The notes under the pieces: generated by a model
Databases searched by the model: none
Told to the model about the DNA's origin: nothing
What the model saw: only the letters and a program-made list of their open reading frames with translations
Assembly (NCBI GenBank): GCA_032718475.1
Contig: JAUCBJ010007933.1
Span: 1-38,586 of the forward strand
Reading direction: 5' to 3'
Source of the DNA: Nemertoderma westbladi
Lineage: Eukaryota > Animalia > Xenacoelomorpha
DNA length: 38,586 bases
Shown: one piece after another, positions 9,543-38,586 of the stretch
Position numbering within the stretch: the first letter of the stretch is position 1
How the letters are laid out: each line of letters begins with the position of its first letter
Made by a program: the position numbers and the translations under genes

Positions 9543-9575
9543 GATGGTGGGCGCTTGTTGGGGGCTGAGTTCTGT
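9095..9575 (-). repeat. GC-rich VNTR with 42- and 48-bp units (~9-10 copies) at the ORF1/ORF2 junction
   Basis: Encodes V(P/T)(P/T)GLSAQRVPTP(VA)A-type 14- and 16-aa units in the ORF2 frame. Confidence 0.9.
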
Positions 9576-9581
9576 TGCGAG

Positions 9582-10493: not shown

Positions 10494-11579
10494 GTAGCGA
10501 TTAAAATCAATGAATAGTGATAAAATCAGATAAAATCAAATCAATTTATTTGAGTTTACAGCAGTAGAGTCAAATTACAAAGTTGATACTTAGGCTTTTC
10601 AAAAAAAAACTTATTAAACTAGAACTTATTAAAAATTTAAAATACAACAATTAATTAGCTAGTAAATAAATGTTTTTTTTTAACCGTTTTAACCCAAATT
10701 CCAGAAATTCCAGCTTTATTCTCCGAATATGTAAAATATATGTAATATAATATATTATGTAATATAATATGATTTAAACTAAGCAACGATTGTTTGAAAA
10801 TATAATAATTAGTACAGTAACATTTTAATCGCCGAAGACCTGTATTACTTCGTGTATATATACCGTATGCACGCACATTAGACCCTAAGTTATTACTATT
10901 ACCATAGAACAATATACTCATATTATCAAAATCCAAACTTTCATATTTATTACGTAATTCTGTGGTTAAAGAAGCGCAAAAAAGTATAACCTGGCGTTCA
11001 TTTTATACAGAAATTTTGACACACTCACACACAACTATAGCGAATTGTGGATAGATTGAAACGAAAATGATCTACAATTATACATACAGTATACATACAG
11101 AATAAATTGCATAATCAGCCCATAGCCCCTATTTACTTACTTAAATCACAAGTATTAAGTGATTAAGTAGTATTATGTAGTATTATAGAACCGATAATGA
11201 GTTAGGTAATATGATTTGAAGAATTACACATGTCACATATTATAGAACCATTTAAAATAGTATAAAGAAATACGGTGCGTATAACAAAATTATCGGACAT
11301 TTTGATCCTCCTAAATAAGCTTTGAATATATTTAAAACGTAAATTAATGAAGCACGGAATGTTATTGCAACCAAAAAAAGATATACTGGAACCTAGTGTT
11401 GTTGTGTAGCAATGGCACCCCCCTTCCCATAATAACTCCTTATCCTCAGGCCCACCCCAGACCATCACGCTGCACTAGCATTGTAGCTATTTGCTTGTGG
11501 ACTGTGGTGGTTCTAGTTATTATATTTTGTGCATGTGTATTTCTAATTCATTGTATTGGCTTAAAGGATAATAAGGCAA

Positions 11580-11740
11580 ACCTCCAAGATTATAACATAT
11601 GTTTCAACTTCTACTCTACTATTAAGAGGAATGCAGCTTCAAAAATCATGCAAGTCAATATTGGAACAAGCTGGATAGTGGATATACGAAAGTGAGTCTC
11701 AAATAATTAGGAGCTTCAACAACACTTTAACAAAGATGAT
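11580..11740 (+). pseudogene. Older BEL/Pao pol relic, left part (end of RT)
   Basis: AASKIMQ...DIRK*VSNN*ELQQHFNKDD resembles the Pao 'NLRKWxSN' motif. It continues after the younger element at 27216. Confidence 0.55.
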
Positions 11741-12931
11741 TGTTCGCGCTTTCAGACCTTTGGCAGTTTAACCCGCCAAATTAGGATGTCTTCTAGATAA
11801 TAATTCGCTTTTAGCCTATGACAAGTATTTGATTCACTACACTAGTCGAAACCAATCTGTGCGCGATCATTCACCCGCTGGATATACCCGGGAGATTGGG
11901 TTCGACGGCTTAATCGTATTGCTATGTAAGCCTAATGTATTATTCGACTGACAGTATTATATAATCTCTGACAATATTATTCACCTTCGGGAAATATTAA
12001 CAGTTCCTTTAGGACATGGCGCTCTACCTATATAAACAGAGTTATGACTTAAACTACTCACAACGATATGGCTTAGTTATAATTCACATATATGGCGCAT
12101 TCTTTAGGAAATGCTTCGTTATCAGTCTCACTCATACACAATGCTGCACAATACTGCACACTGATCTGCCGATCTTCACTGATTTTAGTCACATATAAAA
12201 GGAACACGGACCGAATCATGTAGGGTCTATCAAATAACATTAGATTCACTTCAAACCACTTTAACATAAGTCACAATCGTTATATGTAACCTTTCTCTCT
12301 TACCTTCGGTATATCAAGAATATTGGGTTTCGGGGTTATTTATCGTTATTCCAAATATAATAATTCATCAACCATATTATGAAGAACTGACAGTAAATAG
12401 CAGTATAACAATATAAAGTATGCACAGGTTGTTTGATTAGATATGGTATGTTATGTTGTGATAAATGCAGTGATCAGACATCAGATAACGGATATATGTC
12501 CTTATAATTAAGCCTACTAGTGTAAGACTAAAACTGAAAACACGGAGGTGCCAAAAGCCGGTTCTTAGGCTCTGGGCAAAAACATAACACTGAACTACTG
12601 AGTTTCTGTATACACCTCCAACACAGAGACAACAAACGCTCTGATTGGTCAACCTGAACAACGAGAGAACAAAGAAACAAAGAGACGTGGCAATATCAGC
12701 TGCTAGCCGTCGTCATGGTAGCGACACTGTTTTCAAAAGTATCCAGCTATTGCGTCACGAGATTGTGGATTATGTCCTCTAAAGTACAAATACAGTACAA
12801 ATACATAAGAAATGACTTTTATGTCCTCTAAAACACCAGTACAGCAAGGACACGGCCTTTTTATGCCTGGCAAACCAACTACATAGTACTTTAAGGGAAA
12901 ATAACCGGCTAATTACGCAAAAGCTTTTACA
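11741..12931 (-). repeat. 3' LTR (1191 bp)
   Basis: TGTTCGCGC...TTTTACA, near-identical to 26030-27215. Confidence 0.95.
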
Positions 12932-12941
12932 CCGCTCCCAG
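12932..12941 (-). promoter_or_regulatory. Short polypurine-tract-like sequence
   Basis: Minus strand CTGGGAGCGG immediately precedes the 3' LTR. Confidence 0.6.
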
Positions 12942-14929
12942 AAAATGGGATTTAAGTCTATAAAATATAACAAATCACAGTTTCTAAAATATAAATATGC
13001 TTCTCCTCGAGCTGATTTTCCTCCGCTCGTAGCTGGATACGTTCATCCAAAACTCTCGCAGAGAATAGGATCGTCCAAGTTCGATAACTTCTTAGAGATT
13101 CTGGGTTTCCCAATCGAATTGAGATAAGGCCAATTCGTTTATCGATTGGACTTACTGTTATAACTTACGTTTATCTGAACAAACGCAGGTTTCCTTTTTG
13201 ATCTTTATAGAATAGCGTTTAACTCGTTTCGTACAACGCTCTCCTTCACCTTGATGAGGGGTTGTATCGCGTTAAACGGGACGACCATACGGTTGGATAG
13301 TGATATTAGGTGTCCGCGTCACAATCCGGCTAGGTAAGATGGGCGGCTAGCTAGAAATCACTGTCGGAGTGTTACCGATTAATTGTTAGGGTAGCACTAG
13401 ATCTTTGAACAGTGAATACAGTCTGCGAGGATCCGCGACACCACCAGGATCGCAGGTCTGAGGTCCAACTAAGGAATGAGGAGGTTTGACCGAGTATTCC
13501 GGGACTCTGATCGTAGGTTTACTCCAGGATCGTTCGAGCCGAGTGAGCATAGGTGATACGTCAACAAGTTTCGGTTTACGTGGATGTTTATGTCTTTCCG
13601 TTTATTAGTTGGGTCTAGGGCATTTATCGTAATAATACCAAAGACGCACGTCTGGTAGGGTAAACGCGGGTGATATTTATTTGTTGTTACAATGCTTCTA
13701 TCAAGAATTCCAAATATACGTTGGAGTTACCGCGTCCATTTGTTTCTTTAGTGTCTTTTCTTTCGAGTCGATTTCGAATAGAATTTTCGCATTCGAATTT
13801 CAGTTTATGGTTCCGACTCCGCTGGGCAGGATATATAGTCGACATAGTCTGTATTGTGTAAATCGATAGGATGACCAGTAGTTAAGAAGCCCATATACGT
13901 ACCATTACGCCGCGTATATCGAGCAGCGAATTTTCTATAGTCCAACTCGCGCGAGCTGCTCTTGGGACATTGGCGGTTCGATATAACGACCATCGTCCTC
14001 CGCAGCAGTTGGACTAACGTCGCCGCGTATTAAGCTATCAACAAACGCTTGTAAAAGTAGAGTATATCGCTCCCCGATACCAAGACCATCTTCTATCAAC
14101 TCCGTCATATCTGCTATATATGAGTTTATCCATATTATAATGAGTTTATATTTAGGCGAGCGGGCGTCGCTGCCTACCCCAATCAACCCCGGACAGTACG
14201 AGATCCTCAGCGCCGATGTGTCATCGCCGCTGTACTTTCGCCAACGACGTAGCCGCACAACGACAACGACAACCGGCACAAGTCACTCAACTGTCCGTCC
14301 CAAAGGCTTAGATGTACTTCAGGTTTTCCTTGGAGAGTTAGGTTACTTTTACGATTGCGACTAGCTACTGTAAACACACCTTAGCAGTAACATTCACCTA
14401 TAAACTCACAAATACCACACAACTGGTCACAACTACGCACATTCGGGCCATTTGTCCGTTAGTCAATGCCTTCCAGAATGTCACTGTATTATTATGTATC
14501 CTTGGATACTAGTAGTGCGCTATTTATTCCCTATGCTATTCAATGGGACAAGCTTTCTATTGTTCTTTTAACTCAATTCTAATTCTAGCGTGGTTGTTGC
14601 TATGGTGACATTATGCAAAGCTAGCGGTAGAATTAGGGTAATTCCAATGCATACAGATCTGGGATGTTATTTAATAGTATTCTTTAATAGTCAATGTTCT
14701 GTTTTATACATGACTTTATGAATTTTATCGGCTATTGACTATGTTTGGGAGACTTTCACACACTCATACGCATGATAAGATAAATCTCCGCTCCCTTGAT
14801 CTATTAATTAATGGAATTTTGGGAACTTTATAAATTGCGTAAAAATGGCAATTTATTAAATTCATTAAAAGGCATGAATTTAAATTGATTCCCTGAAATT
14901 TTATTATTTGATAATTAAATGGACATATT

Positions 14930-15215
14930 TGGATTCCAGAACATGTCTGGGGACACAAGATCCTTAATTCTATGACAATTGTCTTTTTAAGAATATCGGT
15001 AAATGCTACGATATCTTAATTGACTAGAATTGTTGAAGGATCTGAATTTTACAGATTTTGACTTATTAGATTTGCAAATATTAAATAATTAATATTTGAG
15101 ATGGGCACCGATTTATTCCAGAACTTGTCTGGGGACGTTAACCACTGATTCTAGAATTTGTCTTTCAAGTATATCGGTGGGTGCCGCGATATCTTAATCG
15201 ACTAGAATTACAGAT
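14930..15215. repeat. Diverged ~182-bp-period direct duplication in the BEL 3' region
   Basis: ATTCCAGAAC(A/T)TGTCTGGGGAC...CGATATCTTAAT(T/C)GACTAGAATT at ~14933 and ~15115. Confidence 0.75.
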
Positions 15216-15755
15216 GGTCAAAGGGTTTAACAGATTTATTTTGCGTTATACGCTACTGTTAAAGGGACATCACGCTACTATATGTATTATTTAATATACG
15301 GTATGAGAGCAATATCGCACGAAGCAATGTCAGTGTGAAGAGGCAAGTCGTTTCCAAGGTCTACCCAGAGCTTGGTTTAGCCGAGACACGAGGATCTGAA
15401 CTTTGCATTCCTAATACTCTGCCTACCAATAATACTTAAATATAGTAGTGGCTTTATTGTACTTTAATAAGTACGGACATTTCATCTTACTGTTGTTACG
15501 TATTTATAATATAATACGGACAGTAAGGAAAGAGAAAAAATAATTATTTCTTCGCCGTCGCACTAAATATAATATAAGTAATTACGTACGTAATAAACAC
15601 GAATATATTGCACTATTCTACACAATAATCGCTAAATAATATTCTACTAAATTAAATAAAACGATTATAATAAAATTACATAGTAATACATACATAAATA
15701 TAAAAATAATAAAATAATATAAAATAATAGAGTCACACGCCCACTCCGAACGATA

Positions 15756-18700
15756 TTAAGTTGGGGAGTCCCTAGATGTCGGTTGGATTAGGGAAGTGGT
15801 CGTGGGAAGAGTTTCTTGCCTTCCATAGTTTCCGGAGAGCTCTCTGTCTCTTTCCAGTAAACATAAACGTCCCACCGGGCGATTGAGCTGTTGAGTCTCA
15901 AAGACTATCCCTGGTTTCTTAAAGTTACACCGCATAACGACGAGTTCTACTGATCGCACCAAACCATCGCTCGAGATATGAGTCTCGATGATACGTCCTG
16001 TTTGCCATCGCTTACGTGGGAGATCGGGGTCCACAATAAGCACCATGTCTCCAGCGCTGACGTTTTCTTGCTGCGCAAACCACTTAGTTCGAAGTTGTAG
16101 AGTGGGCAGGTAATGTTTCTCGAAATGGTCAGCGAAACGACGGGATAGCAACTGCATAAGTTGCCAGGTTCGACGGCAGTACTCGTCTCCGTCTGTGATC
16201 TCCGATCGTGGGAGCATGGCTACGGGTTTCTTCAGTAGAAAGTGCGCGGGTGTTAGCGCTTCCAGGGAATCCGGATTTGAAGAGACTGGCATAAGCGGTC
16301 TTCGTTGAGATAGGCGGCGATTTCCTCCATTAACGTCCGCAATAGTTCGTCGGTGAGATAAGCGCGACAAGGCACAATAAAGTGGAACGCAGTCTTCACG
16401 CTCCTAATCAATCTCTCCCAACTTCCTCCCCACCAAGGGGCGTCGGCGGCGTTGAAGGTCCAGCTAGACGCTGTTATCCTTAGCTGATCGTCCACCTGTC
16501 TTTTGTTCCAGTCCTTTACGTAAGCTTGAATTTCGTTGTTGGCGCCAATGAAGTTCGTTCCCTTATCCGATCTCATCGTGTTACTGGTTCCGAAGCGAGC
16601 GATCTGTCGTCGTAAACTCAACACGAAGCTGTTGGTGGATAGATCGTTTACCATATCGAGATGGATAGCTCTACAAGTCATACAAACGAAGATGACACAC
16701 CATCTCTTGACTATAGTCCGGGCACGATATACTTCAATAGGGCCAAATAAATCCACACCGGTATTAGTAAAGGGTGGTTCATAGAAGCTTACTCTTTCCC
16801 TAGGTAATTCTGCCTCTCGCTGTGTCAAAGGCCTACTGAATGCTTTCCTACAGGGTATACAGTTCCTAAGAACTTGGTTCAGAGCCCTACGGGGTTTATA
16901 AAAATAGTAGCGAGTTCGAATTTCGCTCAGAACTCATTCTCTACCAGCATGGTACAGTTTGCTATGAACATCTACAATTATCTTGATTTGTATGTCAAGA
17001 TTTCTAATGAGTATGGGAAACTTAGTGTCAAAGGATAAGGGGGCGTTGGTGAGCCTGCCTCCAACACGTATTAACCCATCTATCATGGTACTAGAGAAGC
17101 GATCGCTTAAGCGCATCTGCGGATTTCTTAACAACAGGAAATACTTATCGGGATCCTCATAGCATTGTAGGAGTCTCAGCATCTGTTTGTTGGTTTCATC
17201 ATGCTCCTGGTAACTGATCTTCTCCTTTAGAAACCTGTCGGATATCTTGTATTGGGGAAGGTCTTTAACAACATGGACTCGTGCAGATGTTGATGGAGCA
17301 TCATCACTATTGGGCTTTGTCCCGGAGTAACGATGATGAAAACATCGTTTCAGATAGGTGACAGCTTTACAGAGCCGATTCCAGGAACTGTAGTGACGTA
17401 TCGCTCTCTGCAAGAGAGGTGAGAGTCCTTGCGAAATATCTGGTATTCCAGATTTCCAATCCTTGTCACGGATTTCCATGACTTCTTTAGTCGTGGCGGT
17501 GGGTTTCTGATCCAAAGCATCCTCTCCGGAAGTAAATAATACAGATAGATCAACCGCAGGTTTAAACAACTTCGATTTACTCGCTCGAGTTTTGGGTTTA
17601 ACTTTCTCCGCTCCCTTGGCCTGTCTGATCTCTGCTGTTGTGAGATGGGGAGGCCATTCTTCTTCTTCTCTGTAGAGAAAGTCAGGTCCTCCTAACCATT
17701 CGGGAGTATTTACCAATTCCTTTGGAGTAGCTCCTCGGGAAGCGATGTCTGCTGGATTAATCGTTCCGGGGCAATGTCTCCATTGGTCCATCGTCGTGCG
17801 ACTAAGTATGATGGCTACTCTGTTGGTAACGAAGACGCTGAACTGACAGACTTCATTGGTTATATACTCTAACACGAGTAAAGCGTCGGTCCAATAGACA
17901 GTTTTCTCTAATGGATAGTCAATCTGTTCTGTTACATTCCGGCCGATGGCTGTAGCGTATAGAGCCGCTTTTAACTCCGCTCGAGGAACTTTCAACTTGT
18001 TGTTGATTAATGCCTTAGAAGTAACCAGGGCGACCTTGATTCCATCCGGAGTTTCTACCCTTAGGTAGGCTACTATACCTATTCCCATATCGCTGGCGTC
18101 TCCAAACACATGGAGTTGATAGGAATACGTAGGGAGAACATGACCAAAATATGAACAGGAAATTATAAAATCCTCGATAGCTGGCAGAGAATCTTCCCAT
18201 TTCATCCACTTCTTCAATAATTCTCCCTTAAGTGGATCGTCCCATGAGTGGTTTTCAAGCCACATTTGTTGTACCAAACTACGAGCAATCAATATAACTG
18301 GGCTAATAAATCCCAATGGATCGAAATAAGTGCTCAGTATACTTAAGCAAATCCGTTTGGTTCGAACTAGATTATCTCGCTGTTTTAGCTGGAAAAACAG
18401 GATATCTCGCTCTGTGTCCCATTTCAAGCCGAGTGTCTTGGTTTCTGGCAGATCATCTTTGATCAAATCGAGATCTTTCGCTCCTCGATCCTCCGCAGGG
18501 ATCGACTCCAGAAACTCACGGGAGTTGCTGGTGAATTTCGTTAATCGAAACCCACCTCTTTTTAAGCACTCTACCGTTCCTTTAGCGACCTCAATGGCTT
18601 CCTCAACTGATGGAAGGGACTTCAGATTGTCGTCCATATATATGTCTCTCTTGATGTTGTCGATCACTTCCTTAGAGAATGCCTCTCGGTTGTCCTCTGC

Positions 18701-21700
18701 AGTGGTACGCACTACCGAACAGGCGTTGGAAGGGCTTGAGATTATCCCGAAGGCCTGGATGGTCATCCAGTACTCCACCGGTTTCTGGTTGAGATCTCCT
18801 TCGGGCCACCACAGAAATTGTAGACTATCTCGATCCCTATCTAGCACCTTGACTTGTAAGAACATGCCTTCTATATCGGAGGCGAAAGCAATCGAATATT
18901 GTCTCAATCTTAAAAGAATTCCCAACAAAGATTGAAGCAAGTTGGGTCCGGGTAACAATTCAGAGTTAAGGGATTGACCCATGTAAAGAGCTGAGCCATC
19001 AAACACTACTCTCACTTCGTGTGGCTTACCGGGTTTAGGAACGTAATGGTGAGTTAAGTAATACGTTCTTTCAGTCACAGGTGTTTCTTCCGGTACTCTC
19101 TCCGCGTATCCCTTACTAATAAATTTTTCCAGCTGTGTTTGATACATTGCTTTAGCTGAAGAATTAGCCGTAAGGCGTCGATGGAGTTGCGCGATTCTTT
19201 TTTCCGCCAAAGGTCTGTTATTGATGAACTTCGGTTCTCTCTTGCGAAAAGGTAAACCGACTTCGTACCTTCCTTGATCTTTGAGGAAACGTGTAGTTGT
19301 CTCTTGGATCTGCTTGGCCCTTTCCTCTTCCACCGACAAGGCTTTATCGTAGGAATTGGGCTCTACCGCCTCTTGCGTAAAGAATCGTACTGCATGTTCA
19401 ACTCGAGTCTTGGCATTGCAACGCTCAATGATGTCATTTAACTCGTCGTTGTAAGCTTCTCGTTCAGATGGATAGAGAAGTTGACATAAGTTCACTTGGT
19501 TTTGCCAAGCCTCGTTTTCCTTAAGGAGATCGATGGTATTCTCCTCATCAAAAAGCTGGTGAACGTCGTCGTTATCTGAGGAGTATGGAATTCCCTCAGT
19601 TGAATCGTCTCCCTCACTAGCATCATCTTCCCATTCACTCACCTGGCAGACTCTCTCTTGCGGTAGTCTTTCTCTGAGTGTTCTACGGGAAGGGCCAGTA
19701 AAGTACCAACCTACTCTAGTTCTTAACGCATAGGTCTGTAGGGGCTGCGGTTGAGCAGGCCGTTTCTCTAATGTCTCCAGCGCCTCATGCGCGTTTTGGC
19801 CGATGAGTATTTGCACTCCAGGATAATCAGTCTGGAATCGAGGTATGTTAAGATGTTGGATGCTCTCATCCTCGTCCCAATTATAAAGGTCTGCTTGAGT
19901 AGTAGCGAAGTTCTTTATAGCCACCATTTTCACTGACCTTATGCTATGTTCTCCTAGTTCGTCCTGGGGGGTGGACAACGCTCCTACATAATAATCCGCT
20001 GTGATTGTAGATTTCCAAACTTGCATAATGCCGGACATGTTGAGCTTAGTTTGGAACTTGGGTTGTCCAGCAAATATATCTTCGGCTAGCTCTTTGTTGA
20101 TGAATGTTCCTGTGCTGCCGGAGTCCAGGAGGGCGTTCACTACATAACTCCGTTTAGGTCCGTGAACCCTTACCTGCACCACAGGAAACTCTCGGATCCC
20201 TACATTGGAAGATGGCTCTTTCCAAGATGGTTGTCGTTCAGAAGTAGTTAGAGTGAAGTCGTTGTCTGTATCCTTTTCATAGGTGAGTGCTCGATACACT
20301 GCGGTATTTATCATGTAACAGGATTCGTTTTCGTCGGAGAACTCGTCTGTATAGAATCCTTCCATCTCAGATTGATCAGTGTCGTTCACATCACTGAATT
20401 GGACATGTAGCTCGGAATCACTTACCTGATTCGGACTATTTCGATCGAATTCAGCGTGCAACAAGATATGATGTTTCGCACCACACTTTGCACACCTTAT
20501 GTCAGAGAAACAGGTACGCCGTTGGTGTCCTTGTCTGAGGCAATTATAACATAACCGCTTATCCCACATGACTTCGCGTCTCTCCGTTAATGACTTCTTC
20601 AGGAATTCATCACACATATTCAAACGGTGGGTCCCGTCACACAGCGCACATTTCGGTTTGATGTTACTTACCTTATTTTGAGTCACATTGTGTACACTTG
20701 CCCTTTCTTCGGGCTTTCTCACCGGAATTCTCTTGGGAGACGTGGGAGGAGTTTTTCTTACCTGTTCTCTCCTGTCATTTGCTCGAGACTTGAATTTACT
20801 TACCTGATCTTTAGGCATTTTATTGACATAATAAGATCTATCAGTGTCTTTCCCGCTATCTTCTCCTTGAGAAGTCTGGCTTTCGCCGTCGTCTGTATAA
20901 CACACTGGTGTTACCTTTCTCCTAGAGACGGGTTTTTCACTTACCTTGTTTTCCGGTGTCTTCTCTCGGGACTGCTTGAGGAGTTGCAATTTCACTTCTC
21001 CATCCAAGAATGACATGAGATCAGCCATGGTAGGGTCTCGTCGTTGTTGTTCCATCATATATAGTACTTTCTTATCCCAGCGTGTGCCTACCCCACCTTT
21101 CGGTAAAGTAGAAGCCACAGCTCCAATGACCATAGAACTTTGGTATTCATGAGACTTACCTAACCAATCTAATTGTCTACAGATCTCTTGAATCTCATCG
21201 GAAAACTCTATTATCCCACTGCTGATGAACTTTCTGGGCGCTACTAATTTTGCATATAAATACTTAGCGATATTATTCCTATTACCATACCTGATGTTTA
21301 GTGTGTCCCAAACTTGTCTTAATCCGTCTGGATGTCCAATAAACTTTAACGCCATTAACTTGGGAGATCCTTCCAAGCACTCGATGAGGTATCTAAGTTT
21401 TTCTCCATTAGATAGTACAGAGTTCTGTATGTTATCTTTGTAATATTCATTAAAAGGTAACCATTTCATCTCATCTCCATTGAATTTGACTACCTCTCCC
21501 ACCTTCACCGCTTGACGGGCTTCGGTTCTAGCCATTTGACGCGTAAAACTTTCTTGGGCCATCGTGTTATTTAATATCGAGTTATCGGTATATAAATTTC
21601 TCGGATTATGATCAGGTCTATAGGGAATGTCATTATCAACAGGTCTATAATTACCCTTAATAGGGTTCACTATAGGAGTTTCTACTTCGCTAGCAGTATA

Positions 21701-23860
21701 GATGCGTGTAGGCTCCACACCTTGCGCATGAGATATTTCAGACCTAACAGGTTGACACATTGTTACAGGGGGTGGTGGTATACCCTTTTGTAAATTTACT
21801 AATTTATCGCGTTCTAGCGCGATATTTTGCTGCACTTCTTGCAACTCTAGCCTACTTTCCCTTACTGTGCCCTTTAACTGTTGAACAGTCCCTTCTAACT
21901 CTCGGACCTGTTGAGAGGAGCGTGCTTGATTCTCCTCCATCTTTCCGAGGAGAATGTCCATCCCCCGCCGTCTCTCGTCCACCCAATCAACCGCCGAAAC
22001 GGGATCCGCCAACGTCGTAGCGGGCAGACGAGGGACAACTGGCGACAAATCAGTAATATTTCGCTCGGGGTCCAGGACCTGAACTGTCTTCTGGGCAGTT
22101 CTACTGGGCACAGGTAGCTTAGTGCTATGCAGAGGGAATGTAGAGGTAGCTTCAGGGAGCACAGGTGTGTCTATCACCGAAGGGGTGATTTCAAAAACAG
22201 GCCTAATTATTTCAGGCTCATCTACTATAGTAGGGAGTCTTTCTATTTTAATTATTTGGTCTGTGGGTTCTGTACTGCCTAAGTTGGTGTTATTTAGTTG
22301 CCTTCTAACAGCTGGAGGCAAATCAGGCAATTTCTGACGGTGGAATGTTCTTTTACGTCTGCTTAGACGAGATCTATTTCCTTTGCCTTCAGTATCGGTG
22401 GTATCGCCTTCTTCAGATGATGTATATCCCTGTCTTTTGGGAGTAGATCGATTCATCATCTGCATATTACTAGCTGTTAACTGTTTACTGAAGTCGTCTT
22501 GCTTCTCTTGAAGATTTTCCAACTCCAGTTGGGTGATCTCTTCAGCCGCTCTCCGTTCTGCTTCCGCCACCGCTGCCGCTTTTGCCTCTGCCGCTGCCGC
22601 TTTTGCCTCTGCTGCTGCCGCTTTTGCCTCTGCCGCTGCTTCTGCCAAGGTCGCCTTTCTTTCTGCCTCTGCCACTGCTGCTATCTTTCTGTCTTCTATA
22701 CGTTTTTTCCTTACTTGTTCTTCCTTTTCTCTAGCGATGCGGAGTTGTTCATCGAATTTAGCTCGGTTCGCCGCTAACCTATCTACATCTATTGCATCCA
22801 ACACACGCTGGGCTCCTTCACTATTAGGGCTAAGTCCATCTAGCCTTCTCCTCAACTCTTCATCTCCCAAAAAACGCTGATAGTCTGACAGATAGATGTC
22901 AATGGCATCCTTCTTATGCGGTTTCTCTGCCGTCGCTTCACTTTCCACTTGGGAAAAAGTAGCGTCCGTTGATTCTCCATGGGTTGAGCGCTCCTCCAGC
23001 TGAGCTTTCCACTGAGCTGCTCCTTGAACCTGGCGACTCACCCGTTGAAACCAAGTCTTTACGGCAACTTGCAACGACGTGTCTTGTCTTCGTTTAGAAG
23101 CCTCCTCAAAGGCCGATAATATTAACCTGATTCGTAGAATTCTTGCTCTTACTTGATAAAGCAGCTGTCCCTGCTCTTGAGGTCCTTGAGGTTGTTGTAA
23201 CAGTTGTTTTTCTACTCGCTCCATAGAGCTGAAGAATCCCTGTGCGTATCCGGCTGTGGACCTCTTCCACACAGCTGGATCTATGGTTTCCTCGGCTACT
23301 CCCATCCGGTGTATGTCTTCCCAGGCAGCTTCGGATAAATCAAACGGGAGTCCGGGTCCGGGAAAGTTCCATTGCGACTCGACCATGGACTTCAGTTCTT
23401 CCCTTGTGTATCCAGCATAACTATCTCTAGTTGAACGCTGGCTTCTCGCCCAATCGATCTGGTGTTCTTCCACAGCGATCAATAATCTAGTGAGTACGGC
23501 TGCAGGAAGGATGAGAAGGGGATCTGAATAAGCCTCATCCGTCATCCTTGCTCCGCGTTCGGGTGTCAGTTCTACCGTATCTTCACTACTGGAGCTGTCG
23601 GGCCGCTGAGAAATAAGTTCTTGGCTCGCGGGTAGTTGCTGTTCCGCTGCTTCTTGGTTCCGCTTGACCTGAGCTCGAGTGCCTATGACAGACCTACGAT
23701 ATTGGACCAGCCTAGGTTCTTTTATTACTACTGGAGGGATGACCTTCCTCACAGTGGGAGGTGAACTGAACTTACGACCAGACGGTTCTACGTCTCTATC
23801 TGAGTCGCAGATAGTTACATCTAATAAACTGTCTGACAGGTTCTGCTTAGTATCAGACAT
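15756..23860 (-). pseudogene. BEL/Pao gag-pol polyprotein; premature stop at 16934-16936 and frameshift at ~16300, both in integrase
   Basis: Knuckles CALCDGTHRLNMC, CYNCLRQGHQRRTC and CAKCGAKHHILLH; protease LLDSGS; RT YMDD; RNase H FGDAS; integrase GVDLFGP, SDKGTNF, WERLI, LTPAHFL. The 2308-aa ORF and 16253-16828 are in the same frame. Confidence 0.93.
22550..22680 (-). repeat. 21-bp coding tandem repeat (AEAKAAA)n in the Gag N-terminal extension
   Basis: GC(C/T)GCTTTTGCCTCTGC units; the protein reads AEAAAEAKAAAAEAKAAAAEAKAAAVAEAE. Confidence 0.85.
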
Positions 23861-25177
23861 GTCTATGTATACCGTTGAATGTCTACTGCTGTATTACAGT
23901 CTGAGCAAGTCTAGTAACTCAGTATTAACTGCTAGCCTAGTAATTAATTACCGATACTGCTACTCAGTGTAGTAGTATATATATATAATATATTAGAACA
24001 CCGGTATGCTTATGGTATATATAACTATATAAGTATTATTACAGACTAGGTTTATCTCAGAATACCGGTATAATTTTAGCACAAATATATATAAATATAT
24101 AATAGGCCTATCGGGAATACCGATATACAGCTTACAGTTTGTAGTATATATAATTCTGGAATAGAATTAATTACAAGTACCGGTATAATTTCAGCCTAGA
24201 TTTATAGAAATAAAGATAATAGGCCTATCGTAAATACCGGTATATCAATTATTTTAAATAATTGAATTTCTGAATTTTTAGGGTTACTTGGTTACTTTAC
24301 TTACTTTATTACCGCTATTTGAGCAGTAGACCAACTGATATGGAGACCTAATGGTTGTATGGTAGGCCTACTATTTATAAATCTTTTGAGTTGATTTATA
24401 ATATATATATACCCTTTAATGGGTTTTGTCAATGTTTGAAATAAATGTTATTATTTCTGGGGAGCAATCACTACACAAAGCGGTGCGCTTTCAGTGATGT
24501 GTTACTTATAGGACACTAAAACAAATAATTCTAATTTACCTAAGTTACTTAATACTACAAATTACGTACAATTCGGGTGAGATTACAATCTCTAAATAAA
24601 CACAAAAATTTACAAAAAACACAAAATACGAATTTTTAGGGTAATTTTACAAGAAGTCTACAAACCAGCCTAACAAAGGGTTAGAAATCTGGTTATTACA
24701 ACGGACAGGGTTCTACGGTATTTGAAAATAATACGTAGTAGTAAGTACACTGCGTTGTCCAGATAGGAAAATACCACCGCCTGACGACCTATAGCCGTAT
24801 CGCTATAGGTTCTACGTTATGTATTACGGAGTGTTCCTACCTAGAAGTTAATAGAGCTAATCGAACGTGCCTATCAACCACTTTACAACACAAATATAAT
24901 GCCTACACTAATTACTCTCGGAAAGCACTGTACACTAAACCCTAAATTAGGTACGAGTACTTGTACAACAGATAATCAGTAGTTAAATATACTTGAACAG
25001 CTAAAAGAACCATGGCATCTGCTGGAGTGACCGATGCACAAAATCACCAGTCTTTACCTACGCCAAGCAGCCCGTGTAGTACCGGGGTTAATTTAACTAT
25101 AGCGGTATGTATAACAAACACAATTACTGTAGGAACAAACTTGGGGAATGAATGTTGCGAATAATCGCATAAACTCT

Positions 25178-25755
25178 GAATAATAAATATTACGCTACAC
25201 GTACAAACTACTCAAACAAAATGCAGACCGAACACTGACAGACTACTATCAAGCCTAAACAAACTACAGGACATGCAGACTCCGAAATAATTAGGTAGTA
25301 TGCGTTCTAACCCAGTAGTACGACTTATTCTTTAATTGGGGGTTTACCTTACAGCATTCGCTGCCCCTACTTCCTAACCGTTCTTTATCGGACAAGTGAT
25401 CTACACACGCTGCAATCCGTTCAGACCTAATAACAGCCAGACAACTATCCAGCCTACAAATTATCTAAATAAATATTATACGCTACCCGTACAGACTTAC
25501 ACAAACAAAGTACAGACTCAACGATGGCAGACTACTCTCAAGCCTAAATAAACTACAGGACATGCAGACTCCGAAATAATTAGGTAGTATGCGTTCTAAC
25601 CCAGTAGTACGACTTATTCTTTAATTGGGGGTTTACCTTACAGCATTCGCTGCCCCTACTTCCTAACCGTTCTTTATCGGACAGATGATCTACACACACT
25701 GCAATCCGTTCAGACTTAACAACAATCAGACAACAGCTCAGCCTACAAATTGTCT
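25178..25755. repeat. 289-bp tandem duplication in the BEL 5' leader
   Basis: GGACATGCAGACTCCG...TCTTTATCGGACA is identical at 25269 and 25558, with more diverged flanks. Confidence 0.9.
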
Positions 25756-26018
25756 GTACAATCAGATCAGGCTTACACGTCTTCTGTTCAATACTGGCCT
25801 ACAAACAAATAAAACTTGACAGAAATAAGTAAAAATCTCAATAAAAAACCAGGGCTGCAGTCCCTGATTAATTATTAAGGCCTACCGGTATATAATTATC
25901 AAAATCGAATAATACTGCTGTACCTGTACTGCTGTAGGTACCGGTCCGGGTGGTTAGGTAGTCAGGCCTACTGGGTACCGGTTGCTTCAGCTTTATTGCC
26001 TACTGCAATACAGAAGCA

Positions 26019-26029
26019 ATATCCGTTAT
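26019..26029 (-). promoter_or_regulatory. Non-tRNA primer-binding site candidate (ATAACGGATAT)
   Basis: Abuts the 5' LTR, has no TGG, and is perfectly complementary to LTR-internal 26774-26784 on the same strand. Confidence 0.55.
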
Positions 26030-27215
26030 TGTTCGCGCTTTCAGACCTTTGGCAGTTTAACCCACCAAATTAGGATGTCTTCTAGATAATAATTCGCTTT
26101 TAGCCTATGACAAGTATTTGATTCACTACACTAGTCGAAACCAATCTGTGCGCGATCATTCACCCGCTGGATATACCCGGGAGATTGGGTTCGACGGCTT
26201 AATCGTATTGCTATGTAAGCCTAATGTATTATTCGACTGACAGTATTATATAATCTCTGACAATATTATTCACCTTCGGGAAATATTAACAGTTCCTTTA
26301 GGACGTGGCGCTCTACCTATATAAACAGAGTTATGACTTAAACTACTCACAACGATATGGCTTAGTTATAATTCACATATATGGCGCATTCTTTAGGAAA
26401 TGCTTCGTTATCAGTCTCACTCATACACAATGCTGCACAATACTGCACACTGATCTGCCGATCTTCACTGATTTTAGTCACATATAAAAGGAACACGGAC
26501 CGAATCATGTAGGGTCTATCAAATAACATTAGATTCACTTCAAACCACTTTAACATAAGTCACAATCGTTATATGTAACCTTTCTCTCTTACCTTCGGTA
26601 TATCAAGAATATTGGGTTTCGGGGTTATTTATCGTTATTCCAAATATAATAATTCATCAACCATATTATGAAGAACTGACAGTAAATAGCAGTATAACAA
26701 TATAAAGTATGCACAGGTTGTTTGATTAGATATGGTATGTTATGTTGTGATAAATGCAGTGATCAGACATCAGATAACGGATATATGTCCTTATAATTAA
26801 GCCTACTAGTGTAAGACTAAAACTGAAAACACGGAGGTGCCAAAAGCCGGTTCTTAGGCTCTGGGCAAAAACATAACACTGAACTACTGAGTTTCTGTAT
26901 ACACCTCCAACACAGAGACAACAAACGCTCTGATTGGTCAACCTGAACAACGAGAGAACAAAGAAACAAAGAAACGTCAACGTGGCAATATCAGCTGCTA
27001 GCCGTCGTCATGGTAGCGACACTGTTTTCAAAAGTATCCAGCTATTGCGTCACGAGATTGTGGATTATGTCCTCTAAAGTACAAATACAGTACAAATACA
27101 TAAGAAATGACTTTTATGTCCTCTAAAACACCAGTACAGCAAGGACACGGCCTGCAAACCTACTACATAGTACTTTAAGGGAAAATAACCGGCTAATTAC
27201 GCAAAAGCTTATACA
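26030..27215 (-). repeat. 5' LTR (1186 bp)
   Basis: TGTTCGCGC...TTATACA. Differs from the 3' LTR by a few substitutions and two small indels. Confidence 0.95.
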
Positions 27216-27660
27216 ATGATGATGTTAAGCAAACAATTCGAACACCACCAGGTCAGCCAAATACGATAATAGAGGAAGACCAAACATTGCCAAATCGTCT
27301 ATATCACTTTCTACACCAGAGCAATCTACGTGTTTAACCCGAGTACTTGGACAAATATGGGACCTTGACGACGACGAACTCAGATATAATGTATCAAATA
27401 TTCACAACTTTTTATCTTCAATTAAACCATGCAAACGAGCCGTTCTTCAATTATTTGCTCGTTTATATGATACTCTAGGTCTTATTGCTCCGTTTACAGC
27501 AAAAATGAAAATTACCTTCCATGAACTTTGTGTAGAAAAAAAAGGCTGATCGGAATGACGAATTACCATCACATAAATTCTAAAGCAATGGAATGAATGG
27601 ATGAAAACATTACGACTTATTAACAAAGTTCGGATACCAAGATATTTATTTAATAAGATA
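27216..27660 (+). pseudogene. Older BEL/Pao pol relic, right part (RT to RNase H region)
   Basis: TRVLGQIWDLDDDELRY...PCKRAVLQLFARLYDTLGLIAPF...KQWNEWMKTL...VRIPRYL matches the Pao pattern KVLG.W...TKR..LS...FDPLG...IPR, with stops and frameshifts. Confidence 0.85.
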
Positions 27661-30136: not shown

Positions 30137-30700
30137 ATTTACATACTTGTGTGTAAAGTAGCACTTTCCAGTGTGATGATCCGAGTGGCTTTGTTACACG
30201 CGCGAACGTTTTAGTGAGTGAGTGAAAATAAAGCCACGAGGATCAGAACACTCTAAAGTACTTTGCAACAAGTATGTATGTAGTTTTATTCCAAAAGTTT
30301 AACATTACGAAATGATTGTACATATACATTATAAGTGATAGATAAGTTATAAATAAGTTAGACTATATTTATGGTGGCGTTTGGAGCCATGTTATAATAA
30401 TTTAAGCAATAATGGTTATTAATAGCTATACCCCGCCTACCGGTAGGTAATGCAGTAGGCCTATCTGGGTGTCAGGCAAATTTCCACCTATTGTTTACGT
30501 GGTAACCCATGACGGCGTTAAGTTATGTCCCCTTAGTGGACATTACTTAACGTCGTCATGCGTCGTCACGTAAACAATAACACCAAATACAATACTAATA
30601 ATGTACAGGCCAATACAATGCTGTAATGTCTTCTAAAGTTGTGTGTGCTAAATAACAACTCCCACTAACGGCGTTGAGTAATGTTACAATTTTGGAATAA
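30137..30700. mobile_element. Hairpin-ended non-autonomous element (Crypton-like architecture, tentative)
   Basis: ~140-bp terminal hairpin (30140-30278), inverted pair TTATTCCAAAA..TAACATTAC (30286-30308 and 30678-30700), and an internal ~85-bp hairpin (30491-30577). Confidence 0.55.
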
Positions 30701-30710
30701 TAAATGTTTA

Positions 30711-31176
30711 CCAATGGGAGATGGTTTAGCGCGAAATTTAAACTCAAATGTTTTCCTGCATTTTACTTAAATGTGCTTTTTTATACTAAAAATATATCTC
30801 CTCCACCATTTCTTAACGGATTTAATTTTTTTTGTGGGAGGTAGTAGCTGAGGATTGTGTTTGCAGAAAAATGGGCCGGATTTTCAAAATTTTGCCTCAG
30901 TCCGAAGTTATGACGTCATCAATGTCATTTTTCGAAAAAAAAAACAAAATGTTATGAATAAATGACATTTGTGACGTCATAACATTTGATTGCAGCAAAA
31001 TTTTGAAAATCTGCCCTATTATTCTGTAGACACAATCTTTACCTACAATGTCCAACAAACAGAATCGAAATCCGTTAAGAAATGGCGGATAAATTTTTAA
31101 TAAAATATAAGCACATTTGAGAAAAATTCAGGTAAACATTTGAGTTTGAATTTCACCGTGAACCATCTCCTATTGG
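30711..31176. mobile_element. Foldback MITE with ~220-bp inverted arms
   Basis: CCAAT(G/A)GGAGATGGTT...TGACGTCA...AATGTCATTT arm is mirrored at 30960-31176. Flanks are TTTA and TTAA. Confidence 0.85.
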
Positions 31177-31627
31177 TTAATATTTATTATGTCAATAATC
31201 AATAACCAATTGGTTATAATCGATAATTAAGACTTGTTCTAAGGTCTAAAAATACGCTGAGTCCATTTCTGCAGTGATAATTAGAAAATAGTTAAGAATT
31301 AAAGATATATTTAGTTATTTAAATATAGTTATTATATTAACTAGTAATTTTATTAAATTAGTGGAATATTTAAATGGCTGTATCTCAAAAACTAAAAGTC
31401 GTATATCGATCCAGATTTTACCATTAAAATCACAGATAAAATTAAAAATAAAATGTTCAAATTTTACCAAATTTTTTACCCATTTTTCAAATTTTTAAAT
31501 TTTAAATTGTTTATGGTAGACGGGGTATAGCTATTAATAACCAGTTGGGCCAAGCTATATTATTATAACATGGCTCCAAACGCCACCATAAATATAAGGT
31601 GACTTATTTATAACATAATTTATGTAA

Positions 31628-34600
31628 TTTTTACATTTATTTATACAGCAAAAATAACTTATATACGGGTATTAAAATATAACTCGTAAATGTATGTATA
31701 TCTTATATTAGTTACTTTCAGTTTTAATCATGGGGCGAATAACCCGGAAACTAAACGTCGTACAGTCCGTGGTGTGGTGTGTCGGCCGTTCCCATCACTG
31801 ATGCAGCATTTCCCACCAAAATCGCCACAGCAAGGTGCTGCAGGAGAAACTGGTGGGAGCGGGGTTCGTGCGTGGCGATGTGGACGCGGGACCCGACCTC
31901 CCGTAGGAATGTGGCAGTCTCGGGTCCTGGGTGGCCGAAAGTCTCATAGGCCACGGGATGGAATAAGTGGCCCCGCTCCATCACCTCTCGGTACTTTATG
32001 TTCTTTGCCCGGTCTGCTCCTTCTGCAGCCCGCCCACCGGCAACCAGAGTTCGTTGAAGGTGGCTGGGTGCGAGGGGATGGGTGACAGTGGAATCCCAAG
32101 CCAGTGTGCGGCCCTGGCTCCATGGAACCAGAGTCACCCATCGGCCCTCGTCCCGTCAGTCCGGCAGAGGCCAGGTGGCTCCAGGATGGACGGAACCCCA
32201 CAGCTGACCAGCGCCCGCCTCACTAGGTCATTCAACATAGCATGACGGGGGTGCCGGCCAGCGCTCTTCTGGCAGCATAGACCATGGAGGCCATCCGGAC
32301 TGCCACAGAGGCAGGTATGGGGCTCGACCACCTTGCAACCCAGCCGAGTGGCAACGGCGATCCTAAATTGGCTGTCGTCGAGCTTCAGCCCCAACGAGGA
32401 ACTGGGCAGGGCATTGAGCCAACAGCCAGCGACTGGGTGGTCGAGGGAGTTAAACCTCGCGAGGTTGTCGGGTGTCGCACTGAGGCGCAATGCATCCAGG
32501 TTTGCAGCATGGACCAGGGCCATCCACGCGCTCTGCATGGTCGTTGTTAGGGGCATCGCATCGAGAGGAAGTGAGGCATTCAGGGCCTCGACGGCCAATT
32601 CGGCAGCTGGGCTCGGCGCTCCCTCTGACGGGAGAAGGTGGTTGGAAAGAGTCGCGCAGGCAGCCGCTGAAGCCAGGAAGGTGGAGGGTGCGAGCTGCAT
32701 AGTGGAACTCAATCCGAGACTGCCCACCCGTGCAGGGAGGCAGGACTGGGCCCACGCAGGGTCGTCGATGGGGGCGTTTGCGACCTCTTGGAGGGCACTG
32801 CGGAGGAGACAGTCGTAGTCCCGAAGCTGTTGTGGGAAATGGAAGCAGGGTGCCGTCCGAAGGAAGTATGTAAGCCGGGGGATGGCGAACGAGTTCCTCA
32901 GAAGGAAGAACCCATGGTGCGCATCGAGGAGTGGCAGGCGGTTGGCGAGGGTAGACAGGTCCCCCACCTTTGCGGCTATGCATGATGCAATGGCGACGTC
33001 TCTGATGGGGGCACCCAGCATTGTCAGCTGCTCCAATGGTGGGTACTGAATGCTGCACAGACCCCGTCAAACGCCGACGGAATCCGGGAGCGAGAAACTT
33101 CCGACTCTGGTCCCAGGAAGAACAACTCGCTCTTGCCAGGGTTTATTACCAACCCACACTCCCTTCCCTCCCCCTCCGCAATGATCCCCTTCAGGTCCTC
33201 CAAGACCAGCTGGTAGTCATCAGATAAGTTGCCATCATCCAAATACCAGACGTTAAAAGTAGACTGCCTGGCCTGGATGATGGGGTTCGCTGTATCACCT
33301 AAGAGGGGTGGACCATCCGAGTCCCCCTGCTGAACCCCCTCGTCGGAAAGGAAAGTTTGGTCCCCGTGGAGGAGAAAGGATGCCTCCCCATACGCCGCGA
33401 GGGTGTAGTTGTAGATGGAGGGGTGGCACTGGTGGATGGTCTCCAACATGGAGTCACGGCAGACGGAGTTGAAGGCATTGCTTAAATCGACTTTCAGCAA
33501 AACCGTTCCTGCCAGGTTCTCCCTTGTTGCTAATGCCCGTACTGCATGGGCTGCAGCTTCCGCACCCAGCTTACAACCGATGCCGAGCTGGGCTGACCCG
33601 TACGAACTGGTGCGGGTATCCATCGCCAAACGCCCAGCGTACTTCGAGCAGAGTCGCCGGAGGGCAACTCCGACGGCTATGGGTCGGATTCCTCCGCCTG
33701 TCTTTGTGAAGGTGAAAAGATTTGCGCCGAAGAATAGCGGGCGGATAACCTTGGGTATGTCACCCGCCACCATTATGTCTACAAACCTTGAGAGTGAGGA
33801 CAGAAGACGCTCAGCAGCCTCACTATTGGATGGGCTGACCAGGACCTTACCCTATCCGGGCCTCCTGCACTGCCACATGGGTAGGAGGGAATCAATTTCC
33901 GTAGGATGGCGGGGAAACAAGGGTTGGTGGATGTGGATACCGGCGGTGGCGGGTCTCTCCGATTGTCGGGTCTGGTTGGGTGCTTTCTCCACAGCATCCC
34001 CAGCGTCTCCGGGGTGTCTGGGGCGATGGAGTCTATGGAGGAGGCAAAACGGATGGCTCCCTTGACTTCGCCGTCCTCTATCTTCTCAGCCATGGCGGTG
34101 GCAAGTCGCACCGATTAAACTGTTACCTTCTGGCGAAGGGTGGCACTCGGGTGGGTTGGCGGGTGACTCATCCCTAATCGCATTGAGAAAGTTGGAGATC
34201 TGGTGGTTAACCAGGGAGGCTGGTGCTTCCTCCCACCTCGCGTGGGTGCTGGGATACAGGAGTGGCCGACTAGGAGTAAACTGGACCAGTTACCCACACT
34301 CGTCGGGTCCGCTGCAATCGCCGAGAAAATCTCAGTGAACAGATCTGCGAAGTTTACCCTAGAAGCCTTTGGGACGTGTCGCAACTGTCGGGTTCGCCAG
34401 CCCCGCCGTAGCGCCAGGATATCCTCGGCCGTAAAATCATGACCCGCAGTGCCGCCAGGTGACCCATTAGCCGCCGCATGTCCCCGTGAATGAGAAGGAT
34501 CCCCCGGTGGGCCGTCAGTACCTGGACAACGCTGGTTAGTAGCGCCGTGATGCGTGATCACAGTTAGCCTTCCACACACTGGGCACAACCCACGCCCGCC

Positions 34601-34700
34601 ACATGAGCGGTCTCCCATGGGACCAGCGCTTCCTGAGGGCGGAGCAAAGGGGACAGATACACCAACATCCGGGGCCGAGGGGACAGATACATACACAGAT
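31628..34700 (-). mobile_element. CRE-clade non-LTR retrotransposon (RT plus restriction-like endonuclease), decayed
   Basis: N-terminal CPVC..HH finger. RT motifs GGIRPIAVG, QLGIG, VDLSNAFN, GVQQGD, WYLDDG. C-terminal HTCLC..HGLCC, RHPRH, EPPGL..DGTRADG/LVPW..G..LAWD.TV, PVAYETFG. Split into five ORFs by stops and frameshifts; ends approximate. Confidence 0.88.
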
Positions 34701-34811
34701 AATTGTTTATTGAATTATATAAAACAATTTCTTAAATTTTTCATAATAAATATTATACTTATTTGTGCGGTGTAATTAAATATGGAGGATCCCAGGTTCA
34801 AAGACGACACC

Positions 34812-36107: not shown

Positions 36108-38586
36108 ATACTACTACTAAGTCGAGCGAACTCGGACAGTGGGAATGAGATCCTTCCAGGCTTCCCGATTCTCCATAGTTGTCGCAATTTCGTTTCTCCC
36201 AAGTTCAGTATCCCTTTCAAGTTGATCTATATATGTGATGGCCGGTCGTCCACGACTACGCTTTCCAATGAGTTGGTTGCCAGAAAAGTAGATCTGGTAT
36301 GACCTCGTCTTTACTTCGCCAGCAGTGCCCACTAAATCTTAATCTGCGTTCACGGATGGTGGTTGATACAGGTGGTATTGTACCATAAAGCTTGGAATTT
36401 GTCATGTGTTGTCTCCAGCTGATGTTAGGGCTGCCCTTACTAGTCTTGTGTAGCAACCATCAATTAGTTTTATTGGTTTAGTCAGTGTCCAGGTCTCACC
36501 CCCGTATAAAAATACGCTTTCCACTGTGGCTCAAAACAACTGGGGAGATCTGATTTCCAAATGGTATCCATTTTTGATAGAGCTGCCTAAGCCTTTGCTT
36601 TCCTAACTTCTATGTCCTTTTTGCTACTCTCTATCCATGATCCTAGGTACTGGAAGTCGTCAACCTTCCTTAGTTGATTATTATCAATGGTTGTCAAGTT
36701 TCCATCAACATTAAAGGTCATGAATTCGGTCTTGGTAGCATTTATATGCAATCCAACCTCTTTAGCAGCCCTCTCCACTTTATTCAGTAGAAGCTGCGCA
36801 TCTTCTAGCGTATTAGAGAGCAGGGAAATGTCATCCGCGAAGTCGGCGTCTGTGACTGTAGTTGCCGGATATCTACTACTTCTGCGTTCTTGAAGTGTGA
36901 ATCCCAGATCTTCACCCTTTGTGGCCGTCCTCATTGCGTATTCCAGTACAATTACACATAGTAATGGTGCTAATGTGTCACCTTGCAGTACGCCAGCCAG
37001 GATTGAGAAAAACTCAGTTTCACGATCTGGTGAGAGTACCTGTGCTTCTGTGTCACAATATGACAATCCAATGCCAGCAACGATTACTTCTGCTATTCCA
37101 TAAGCTCTTAGGATTTCAAGCATTTTACCTCTATGGATGGAGTCGAATGCCTTCTTGAAGTCCACAAAAGTCATGACTGCGGGGAGATTCTTTGACTTAA
37201 TTCCTTCAATCAGTCTCTGTAGTGCAAGTATCTGAGCTATTGTTGATCTACTTGGTCGAAATCCCTTTTGGCTCTTACGCAGTAGTTTCTCTATGTGAGG
37301 CCTAATCCTATATAGAATCATTTTATTGTATATTTTGGCAGCTACCACAAGCAGACAGATCCCACGATAGTTTGTAGGTATGCCGAGGTCTCCTTTCTCG
37401 GGGAGAGGCTTTAGTTGACCTTTAGTTCAAATTGGTGGTGGCTTTTCCCCTTTTAACATCCGGTTGCAAACATTCAATAATGGTCTGTTTAGCAGTCCGG
37501 TTTTCCATACCTCCGCTGGGATTTCATCTAATCCACTCGCATTATTATTGGGCATGCTTTTAATGCTTCTTTGGAGTTCGGCAGGTGTGAAGTCCCCTGT
37601 TTCTATAGGTAGTGTCTTGTCATATATTTTCCTTGTAGGGCTGACCTCGATGTTTGGTGGCTGCCCAAGCAAGGTGCTGAAGTGATTTTTCCACTTCCCC
37701 ACACGTTCTTCGGGACTATTGGCTTTGAGGTGCCCCTTTGCACAACTTTTCCGACCAAATACCTCATTCACAGTTTGCCAGGTAAGTCTTCATTGTTGCT
37801 GTATGTGAGCAGTTGTAATTGCTTCAATTTCATCCTGTATGTACTTTTCCTGGCTGGGATGTTGTAGGCCAATTTAAGATCATCCTTAGCTTTCTCAACC
37901 TTGTTAATGTTTTCGGTTGTTGGTTGTTTGGTTTTTACTTTGTAGGCTATCTTAAGATCTTCTCTCTTACAAGTAACCTCAGAGTTTTGCCATGGCAAAA
38001 AATGTATTCGTTTGGGTTTCTGGGGGATATGCCTCTAAGCTGATTCCTTGTGGGCTTTTATTATATTCTGGTATATTGAATCGGTGGACTGGTCTTCATC
38101 CATTGACTAAAGTGCTTCAAAGCGGTTTTGAACTTCTACTATGTAAGCATCCTTTACTGCATTGTCAGTTCTGAGTTTCTCCCAGTCATAGTTGATTTGC
38201 CCATTTGCCCATTAGGGTATTGAAAGGTCCATAGCTTCGATATTTGATTTGCTTGCTTGTCCTGGGTTTGCTGGCTCTCAAACTGAGTCTGATCTCTGCA
38301 GTCACAATTCTGTGGTCCGAACCAATTAGGTTGAACGAGCTGTATGCCTCGCAGATGATCATGCTGTTTCTCCACTTTTTGTTTATAAGGATGTAATCCA
38401 GTTGTGCTTTGGTTCCATTAGGGTATTGAAAGGTCCATAGCTTCCCCTTACTCTTTTCGAATGTGTTGTTTGTTGGTATCAATTCACATTCTTCCATTAG
38501 GTCTAAAAGTAAGTACCCATTTCTATTAGAACTGGGTGTTATATGTGTAACCCTTGATGTCTTCTGGGCCTATTTGCGCATTCAGG
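36108..38586 (-). mobile_element. RTE/RTE-X-like LINE, decayed; 5' part runs off the window
   Basis: APE end QLDYILI...SDHRIV. RT motifs NYRGICL, QKGFR, FVDFKKAFDS, GVLQGDTLAP, DFADD, FQYLGS. C-terminus RRLRFSGHCWR...RGRP and (TAG)n 3' tail at ~36109-36119. Many frameshifts. Confidence 0.9.

Follow-up and report, generated by a model that had tools for sequence, protein, structure and literature searches.

A candidate self-priming BEL/Pao retrotransposon of Nemertoderma westbladi with a primer-binding site complementary to its own LTR

The window, by which we mean the whole analysed stretch of 38,586 nucleotides of Nemertoderma westbladi DNA, contains a minus-strand LTR retrotransposon of 15,475 bp (15.5 kb; 27215-11741), and at the 5' end of this element the primer-binding site (PBS) matches the LTR. 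The parts of the element and its flanks, in the order of transcription, are:

27216..27220, minus strand: target-site duplication ATCAT, 5' side, 5 bp
26030..27215, minus strand: 5' LTR, 1186 bp, TG...CA
23861..26018, minus strand: 5' leader, 2.2 kb, with 289-nt and about 116-nt tandem units and a hairpin directly after the PBS
16934..23893, minus strand: gag-pol ORF, 2319 aa stop to stop, ending at a stop in the N-terminal part of the integrase
15756..16933, minus strand: integrase and DUF5641 region, interrupted by the stop at 16936-16934 and by a shift of frame near 16300-16180
12932..12939, minus strand: polypurine tract GGGAGCGG, 8 nt, abutting the 3' LTR
11741..12931, minus strand: 3' LTR, 1191 bp, TG...CA
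11736..11740, minus strand: target-site duplication ATCAT, 3' side, 5 bp

On the minus strand the 5' LTR ends in ...GCGCGAACA at 26030, and the same end recurs in the 3' LTR at 11741, where it is followed by ATCAT. This shared end, with ATCAT after the 3' LTR and before the 5' LTR, fixes both the LTR boundary and the 5-bp target-site duplication. The two LTRs differ by 5 substitutions and 2 indels; as they are near-identical, have TG...CA termini and are flanked by ATCAT on both sides, the insertion is young and its boundaries are secure.

The gag-pol ORF encodes a DUF1759 domain, three Cys/His knuckles, a protease with LDSG, a reverse transcriptase (RT) with YMDD, and intact RNase H D-E-D-D motifs, with the predicted catalytic motifs FGDAS, RAEL, WTDA and NPAD. 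The frame 23893-16934 matches PF05380 (E 9e-35) and PF03564, and the downstream frame matches PF18701. On its proteins only (these three families and the order Gag-PR-RT-RH-IN) the element is a member of BEL/Pao, as the sequence-only reading of this DNA had proposed, and it also has the structural features of the group, namely two TG...CA LTRs of 0.2-1.2 kb, a short target-site duplication and a polypurine tract before the 3' LTR. The best RT-RNase H homologues are 38-43% identical, PF05380 is present in all 120 listed of 465, and the named ones among the matches listed come from sea urchins, corals and fish. The polypurine tract of the relatives reads GGGGCCGG(AA). As the integrase is broken, this copy would need a helper for further movement. 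Between pol and the polypurine tract (12932-15755, minus strand, 2.8 kb), where an env-like gene might be expected, there is no ORF of more than 125 codons.

At about 70 bp from the 5' LTR, outside the element and on the other strand, there is a fragment of another BEL/Pao pol (27289-27642, plus strand; tblastn E 5e-8), and it seems that the insertion took place in or next to an older relative. A non-LTR retrotransposon, identified by eye, occupies 6271-10535 (minus strand) with an ORF1 and an endonuclease-RT ORF containing 42-48-nt tandem repeats. Two more broken non-LTR RT elements lie at 32134-34714 and 36587-37426 (both minus strand), of which we take one to be CRE-like and one RTE-like. 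Nested long inverted repeats with arms of 62, 101 and 106 nt, like those of a MITE or foldback element, are found at 30343-31617, and four tandem units of about 163 nt with internal inverted repeats at 384-1035.

The features at the priming end of the element are:

26019..26029, minus strand: non-tRNA primer-binding site ATAACGGATAT, 11 nt, abutting the LTR end (offset 0)
26774..26784, minus strand: predicted self-primer ATATCCGTTAT, exact complement of the PBS, with a cut predicted from Tf1 between 26774 and 26773
12485..12495, minus strand: second copy of the 11-mer ATATCCGTTAT, in the 3' LTR

The match between PBS and LTR is exactly 11 nt long, starts at offset 0 and extends on neither side, and there is no TGG at offsets 0-5 after the 5' LTR. 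The PBS is in this respect of the Tf1 type, exactly complementary to about 11 nt of its own LTR. The sequence-only reading had noted the site directly after the LTR end, its lack of a TGG and the exact complement in each LTR, and all of these stand; the chance values obtained here are 0.0004-0.002. Of the internal positions of the element, 5/13,066 have an LTR complement of at least 11 nt (0.0004), and Markov models give 0.0007-0.002. Random internal sites reached 11 nt in 0/300 cases under a strict rule (offsets 0-5, contiguous or across a GT[AG]AG donor and a pyrimidine-rich YAG acceptor) and in 2/300 under a looser one. The primer partner is contiguous, with no splice junction; the sole split alternative, of 10 nt with a GTTATC donor and a purine-rich acceptor, was rejected.

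Three further features of the LTR may be mentioned here. The motif GGACATA occurs three times (27121, 27072 and 26790, minus strand), and the third is predicted to fold with the 11-mer into a small hairpin, a possible competitor of the pairing with the PBS. Downstream of the 11-mer there is a strong splice-donor match, AG|GTAAG, at 26594-26588 (minus strand); an intron from this donor would shorten the loop between primer and PBS, and a search for junctions at this donor found none. Among copies, the LTR varies most in the stretch 26700-26772, immediately beyond the predicted cut, and the depth of aligned sequencing runs drops there 5-18-fold in all four runs compared; the part 26030-26700 is 3-4 times deeper than the upstream part. 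This step in depth suggests subfamilies with different U3 regions.

Relatives were fetched by RT-RNase H alignment with 36 homologues, which gave the best 80 of 549 metagenome loci; viral contigs contained no relatives, whether searched by single protein or by alignment. An LTR repeat was present in 29/80 loci and the 51 without one were left out. The LTR 3' end was defined in 14 loci, that of L026 being set by its likeness to L029. Under the strict rule 9 of these 14 (8 families, 36-44% identity) pair over 10-13 nt with their own LTR, and for each of the nine 0/300 random internal sites were as good. In seven of the 14 (L002, L006, L026, L029, L046, L048 and L066) the pairing runs across predicted GTAAG..AG introns of 67-164 nt, and in L031 and L080 it is contiguous. 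Among the remainder, L010 and L073 have TGG sites with self matches of only 5 and 4 nt, L069 reaches 10 nt only with a weak donor, L033 shows 12 nt at offset 9 (found post hoc), and a convincing self match was not found in L064. The locus L076 likewise gave none. A boundary-blind scan of seven loci with only the LTR start known detected 10-15 nt of pairing in 6/7, against 2/38 control windows; two loci of this set (L003 and L025) repeat families counted before. A scan without a control covered eight more contigs that were circular or unclear. Of these, L044, L052 and L075 are compatible with the self type and L014 looks like the TGG type; the match in L039 is weak, and L032, L037 and L074 fit neither type clearly.

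Across all 20/20 self-type loci the PBS starts with GT at offsets 0-5 (9 in L033) and its partner ends in AC; offset 0 is found also in L025, L026, L029 and L043. The N. westbladi element, at offset 0, is an exception, with a PBS that starts with AT and a partner that ends in AT, which, if the sites are homologous, would represent a matched transition. At ten loci (L002, L006, L046, L048, L066, L026, L029, L008, L015 and L063) pairing of the PBS requires a predicted GTAAG/GTGAG..AG junction in the LTR, with 4-7 nt contributed by exon 1 and 4-8 nt by exon 2; L002, L006 and L046 share TAGGAGC..GA.CAAA before the donor. The pairing letters differ between families, and in the close pair L031/L033 an A/T swap in the PBS is matched by one in the LTR. 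Distant relatives preserve the complementarity between the post-LTR site and the LTR in spite of their different letters.

These observations bear on the possibility that a host RNA without a CCA end (half tRNA, tRNA fragment or other small RNA) is the primer and that the LTR match is due to chance or is a by-product. Half-tRNA priming is known in Copia lineages, according to the accessible text of PMC6317226, the N. westbladi site starts with AT unlike those of its relatives, and PBS variants exist among other copies (see below). However, a fixed host RNA is disfavoured, as it would not produce PBS letters that vary family by family and track the family's own LTR, and the chance of the LTR match is at most 0.002. 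Within the element ARAGORN predicts 0 tRNA genes, so that no self-encoded tRNA primer was found, and an Rfam search returned one sub-threshold mir-23 match only. We consider priming by a host RNA unlikely.

The phyletic spread of the self match was placed on an unrooted IQ-TREE tree of 30 of 79 rows, with one locus for each labelled family included. A branch with 97/94 support separates three TGG-labelled loci from 15 self-type rows, the label of one of the three (L014) coming from the uncontrolled scan. The N. westbladi element has a long branch (1.83) and is placed next to the TGG clade at 44/39 support. An independent origin of tRNA-free priming in this element, as once proposed for it, is therefore not borne out: the trait is widespread among relatives, and the tree, at 44/39, speaks neither for nor against a place with the TGG-type clade. 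It is likely that self-priming is a trait of a wider BEL/Pao group and not an invention of the N. westbladi element.

The primer of Tf1-type elements is the first 11 nt of the transcript. In the N. westbladi element the candidate starts lie further upstream:

26815..26826, minus strand: candidate transcription starts TCAGTT (A at 26824) and TTAGTC (A at 26818), which we take to be Inr-like, by consensus match only

TCAGTT lies 42 nt upstream of the 11-mer, close to the 40 nt given before. TTAGTC is accompanied at +29 by GGACA, which is presumably DPE-like, the canonical position being +28. With the weak TATA-like TATAAG at 26795, the start would instead fall just downstream of the 11-mer. On the Inr-like motifs transcription probably begins 34-40 nt upstream of the 11-mer, and a start at 26784, as in Tf1, is without support. 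As the Inr-like motifs sit 34-40 nt upstream, the primer is more likely to be a longer capped leader.

In the predicted fold the PBS/11-mer duplex (-12.0 kcal/mol) forms across 765 nt, with a loop of 745 nt between primer and PBS, and it is the longest of the 11 helices of at least 7 bp in that fold. In whole-leader folds its central pair probability is 0.75-1.0 for four starts tested from 26790 to 26826, a range that includes both Inr-like starts (26824 and 26818); for six starts tested from 26838 to 26898 the duplex is lost (probability at most 0.17). Tf1-type self-priming also involves an accessory U5-leader stem next to the PBS duplex; helices that may correspond to it are predicted here, namely 26771/26074 (7 bp), which lies in a stretch variable among copies, and the post-PBS hairpin.

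It is conceivable that the pairing is real but has a role in the fold of the RNA, for packaging, dimer formation or the control of translation, or that transcription starts downstream, so that the 11-mer belongs to U3 and only its 3'-end copy pairs, with priming achieved otherwise. The start is placed by motif only, TATAAG lies at 26795, and the fold is sensitive to the start position, all of which leave room for such a role. Against this, the match ends exactly at the LTR boundary, where the 3' end of a primer must lie, there is no other primer site at offsets 0-5, and in the relatives the 3' end of the partner is fixed as AC and often lies across a predicted splice junction, which fits a primer made from the 5' leader. 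This reading appears rather improbable to us.

Six sequencing runs from four studies match part of the window, and four of them were aligned for a comparison of copies. X1 and X3 are DNA runs from separate studies, and X4 is RNA by guess only. The family appears to be abundant, as the LTR is about 1000 times as deep as the flank in X1 and X3, a ratio that should not be read as a copy number. Among the variants considered (40 listed of 200 substitution rows and 12 listed of 54 indel rows) two substitutions fall inside the PBS. That at 26025 accounts for 134,419/297,434 of the depth in X1, 88,594/197,703 in X3 (about 45%) and 16.6/20.1 in X4; that at 26029 for 210,545/421,365 in X1 (50%), 88,673/255,722 in X3 (35%) and 16.6/20.1 in X4, a signal to which sequence flanking solo LTRs or 3' LTRs may contribute. 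The two substitutions seem to lie together on one contig in X4. The LTR positions that pair with the PBS are not among the 40 listed of the 200 substitution rows; if they are unchanged in copies with the PBS substitutions the duplex would shrink to 6 bp (-6.0 kcal/mol), and if they are compensated it would retain -10.3 kcal/mol.

The least probable alternative, an aberrant copy in which a normal TGG site was lost or was overwritten by a template switch copying the LTR 11-mer in inverse, draws on the defective integrase and on a possible sister position to the TGG-type clade, but we dismiss it as very unlikely, as the element-type letters at 26025 make up about 55% of the summed depth in both X1 and X3, neither listed PBS variant creates a TGG, and the sole listed joint across the PBS (25888 to 26030) has a depth of 17-19 against about 300,000. 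The alignments contain one hint that favours self-priming. For an X4 contig, which has 13 differences (11 of them listed), and for an X6 contig the alignment breaks off at 26771, and 26770 and 26773 are the landing points of two X1 joints. Diverged copies can thus be aligned over the 11-mer itself and begin to differ directly beyond the predicted cut. None of the listed joints in X4 has GT..AG ends.

What is directly observed is DNA complementarity at the position of the primer, the absence of a TGG, an RT and an RNase H whose motifs are intact, and a signature of the same kind in relatives. On this basis we think it quite likely that the N. westbladi element primes reverse transcription with its own RNA. 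Of the original proposal, self-priming itself has gained strong comparative support from the family-specific pairing in relatives, while the independent origin and the start at 26784 have found no support. Evidence against self-priming consists of the PBS substitutions in other copies, the AT instead of GT start, the loss of the fold with starts at or beyond 26838, TATAAG at 26795, and the long branch of the element with its possible place beside the TGG clade. In the proposed mechanism RNA polymerase II would initiate near 26818-26824 within the 5' LTR, some 34-40 nt ahead of the 11-mer, and the leader would fold such that 26784-26774 pairs with 26029-26019. The element's own RNase H might then cut after 26774, by analogy to Tf1, and RT would extend from 26030 to give a strong-stop DNA of about 744 nt. 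Strand transfer, priming at the polypurine tract and integration would follow by the usual route.

With somewhat less confidence, we favour the view that a large and old part of BEL/Pao is tRNA-independent, its primer being a capped piece of the element's own leader that is spliced across an LTR intron in most families and contiguous in others, including the N. westbladi element. If true, splicing would act as a switch that licenses cDNA synthesis, and the tRNA priming of Belpaoviridae would hold for some clades only. Such elements might be freed from control through tRNAs and tRNA fragments. The same reading would explain why annotation by PBS can overlook them, and it predicts RNA ends at exact positions. 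What is new here is a further contiguous-primer, deeply diverged BEL/Pao family with PBS variants among its copies, and a controlled test on independent public loci; the mechanism resembles that of Tf1.

The replication of BEL/Pao elements is poorly understood according to the ICTV profile (PMC8742986). We found no report of self-priming in BEL/Pao, in a search whose scope ended short of most subscription papers, the early BEL descriptions, supplements and Repbase. The word tRNA is absent from the accessible main text of PMC3118150, PMC554778 and PMC6238403, and the accessible parts of PMC5443660, PMC5445492 and PMC6934838 mention self-priming only for Tf1-type elements. With a demonstration in Tf1 and predictions in a few lineages of Gypsy and Copia on record, BEL/Pao would be the third superfamily with self-priming. 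Hairpin priming may be ancestral, as suggested in the available part of PMC3601003. The question raised there, whether self-priming is ancestral or recurrent, is one to which a BEL/Pao primer located inside the transcript, and in many cases produced by splicing, would be relevant.

Among known systems the element compares by protein content with the Belpaoviridae (Semotivirus), for which the ICTV profile lists a PBS of 18 nt matching host tRNA-Arg or tRNA-Gly, and a genome of 4.2-10 kb (PMC8742986). The N. westbladi element shares with them the Gag-PR-RT-RH-IN order, the Pao peptidase A17, DUF1759 and DUF5641, LTRs of 0.2-1.2 kb and a short polypurine tract; it differs in having no tRNA site and in its length of 15,475 bp, which includes non-coding stretches of 2.2 kb and 2.8 kb. 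By its PBS it resembles Tf1/Tf2 of Schizosaccharomyces pombe, Tj1 of S. japonicus, and the Tf1/sushi and Tcn1 elements of Ty3/gypsy, which likewise have no tRNA site and a PBS complementary to 11 nt of their own LTR RNA. In Tf1, which is described together with Tj1 in the accessible parts of PMC7175516 and PMC4600332, the PBS complements 11 nt of the element's own LTR RNA, and RNase H cuts between bases 11 and 12. The N. westbladi element differs from this group in its BEL/Pao domains, in place of a Ty3/gypsy chromovirus polyprotein, and in its loop of 745 nt, and its BEL/Pao relatives in a primer often split by a predicted intron, both as read here from sequence. A third comparison is provided by the TAR lineage of plant Ty1/copia (Houba, Osr-1), where self-priming outside Tf1/sushi has been proposed once before: as far as the accessible text of PMC6317226 goes, it was predicted there for Tcn1 and Copia TAR from LTR-PBS complementarity of at least 10 nt located 0-5 nt after the LTR. 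The N. westbladi element shows complementarity of the same kind, in BEL/Pao and in an animal, whereas the TAR elements belong to Copia and to plants.
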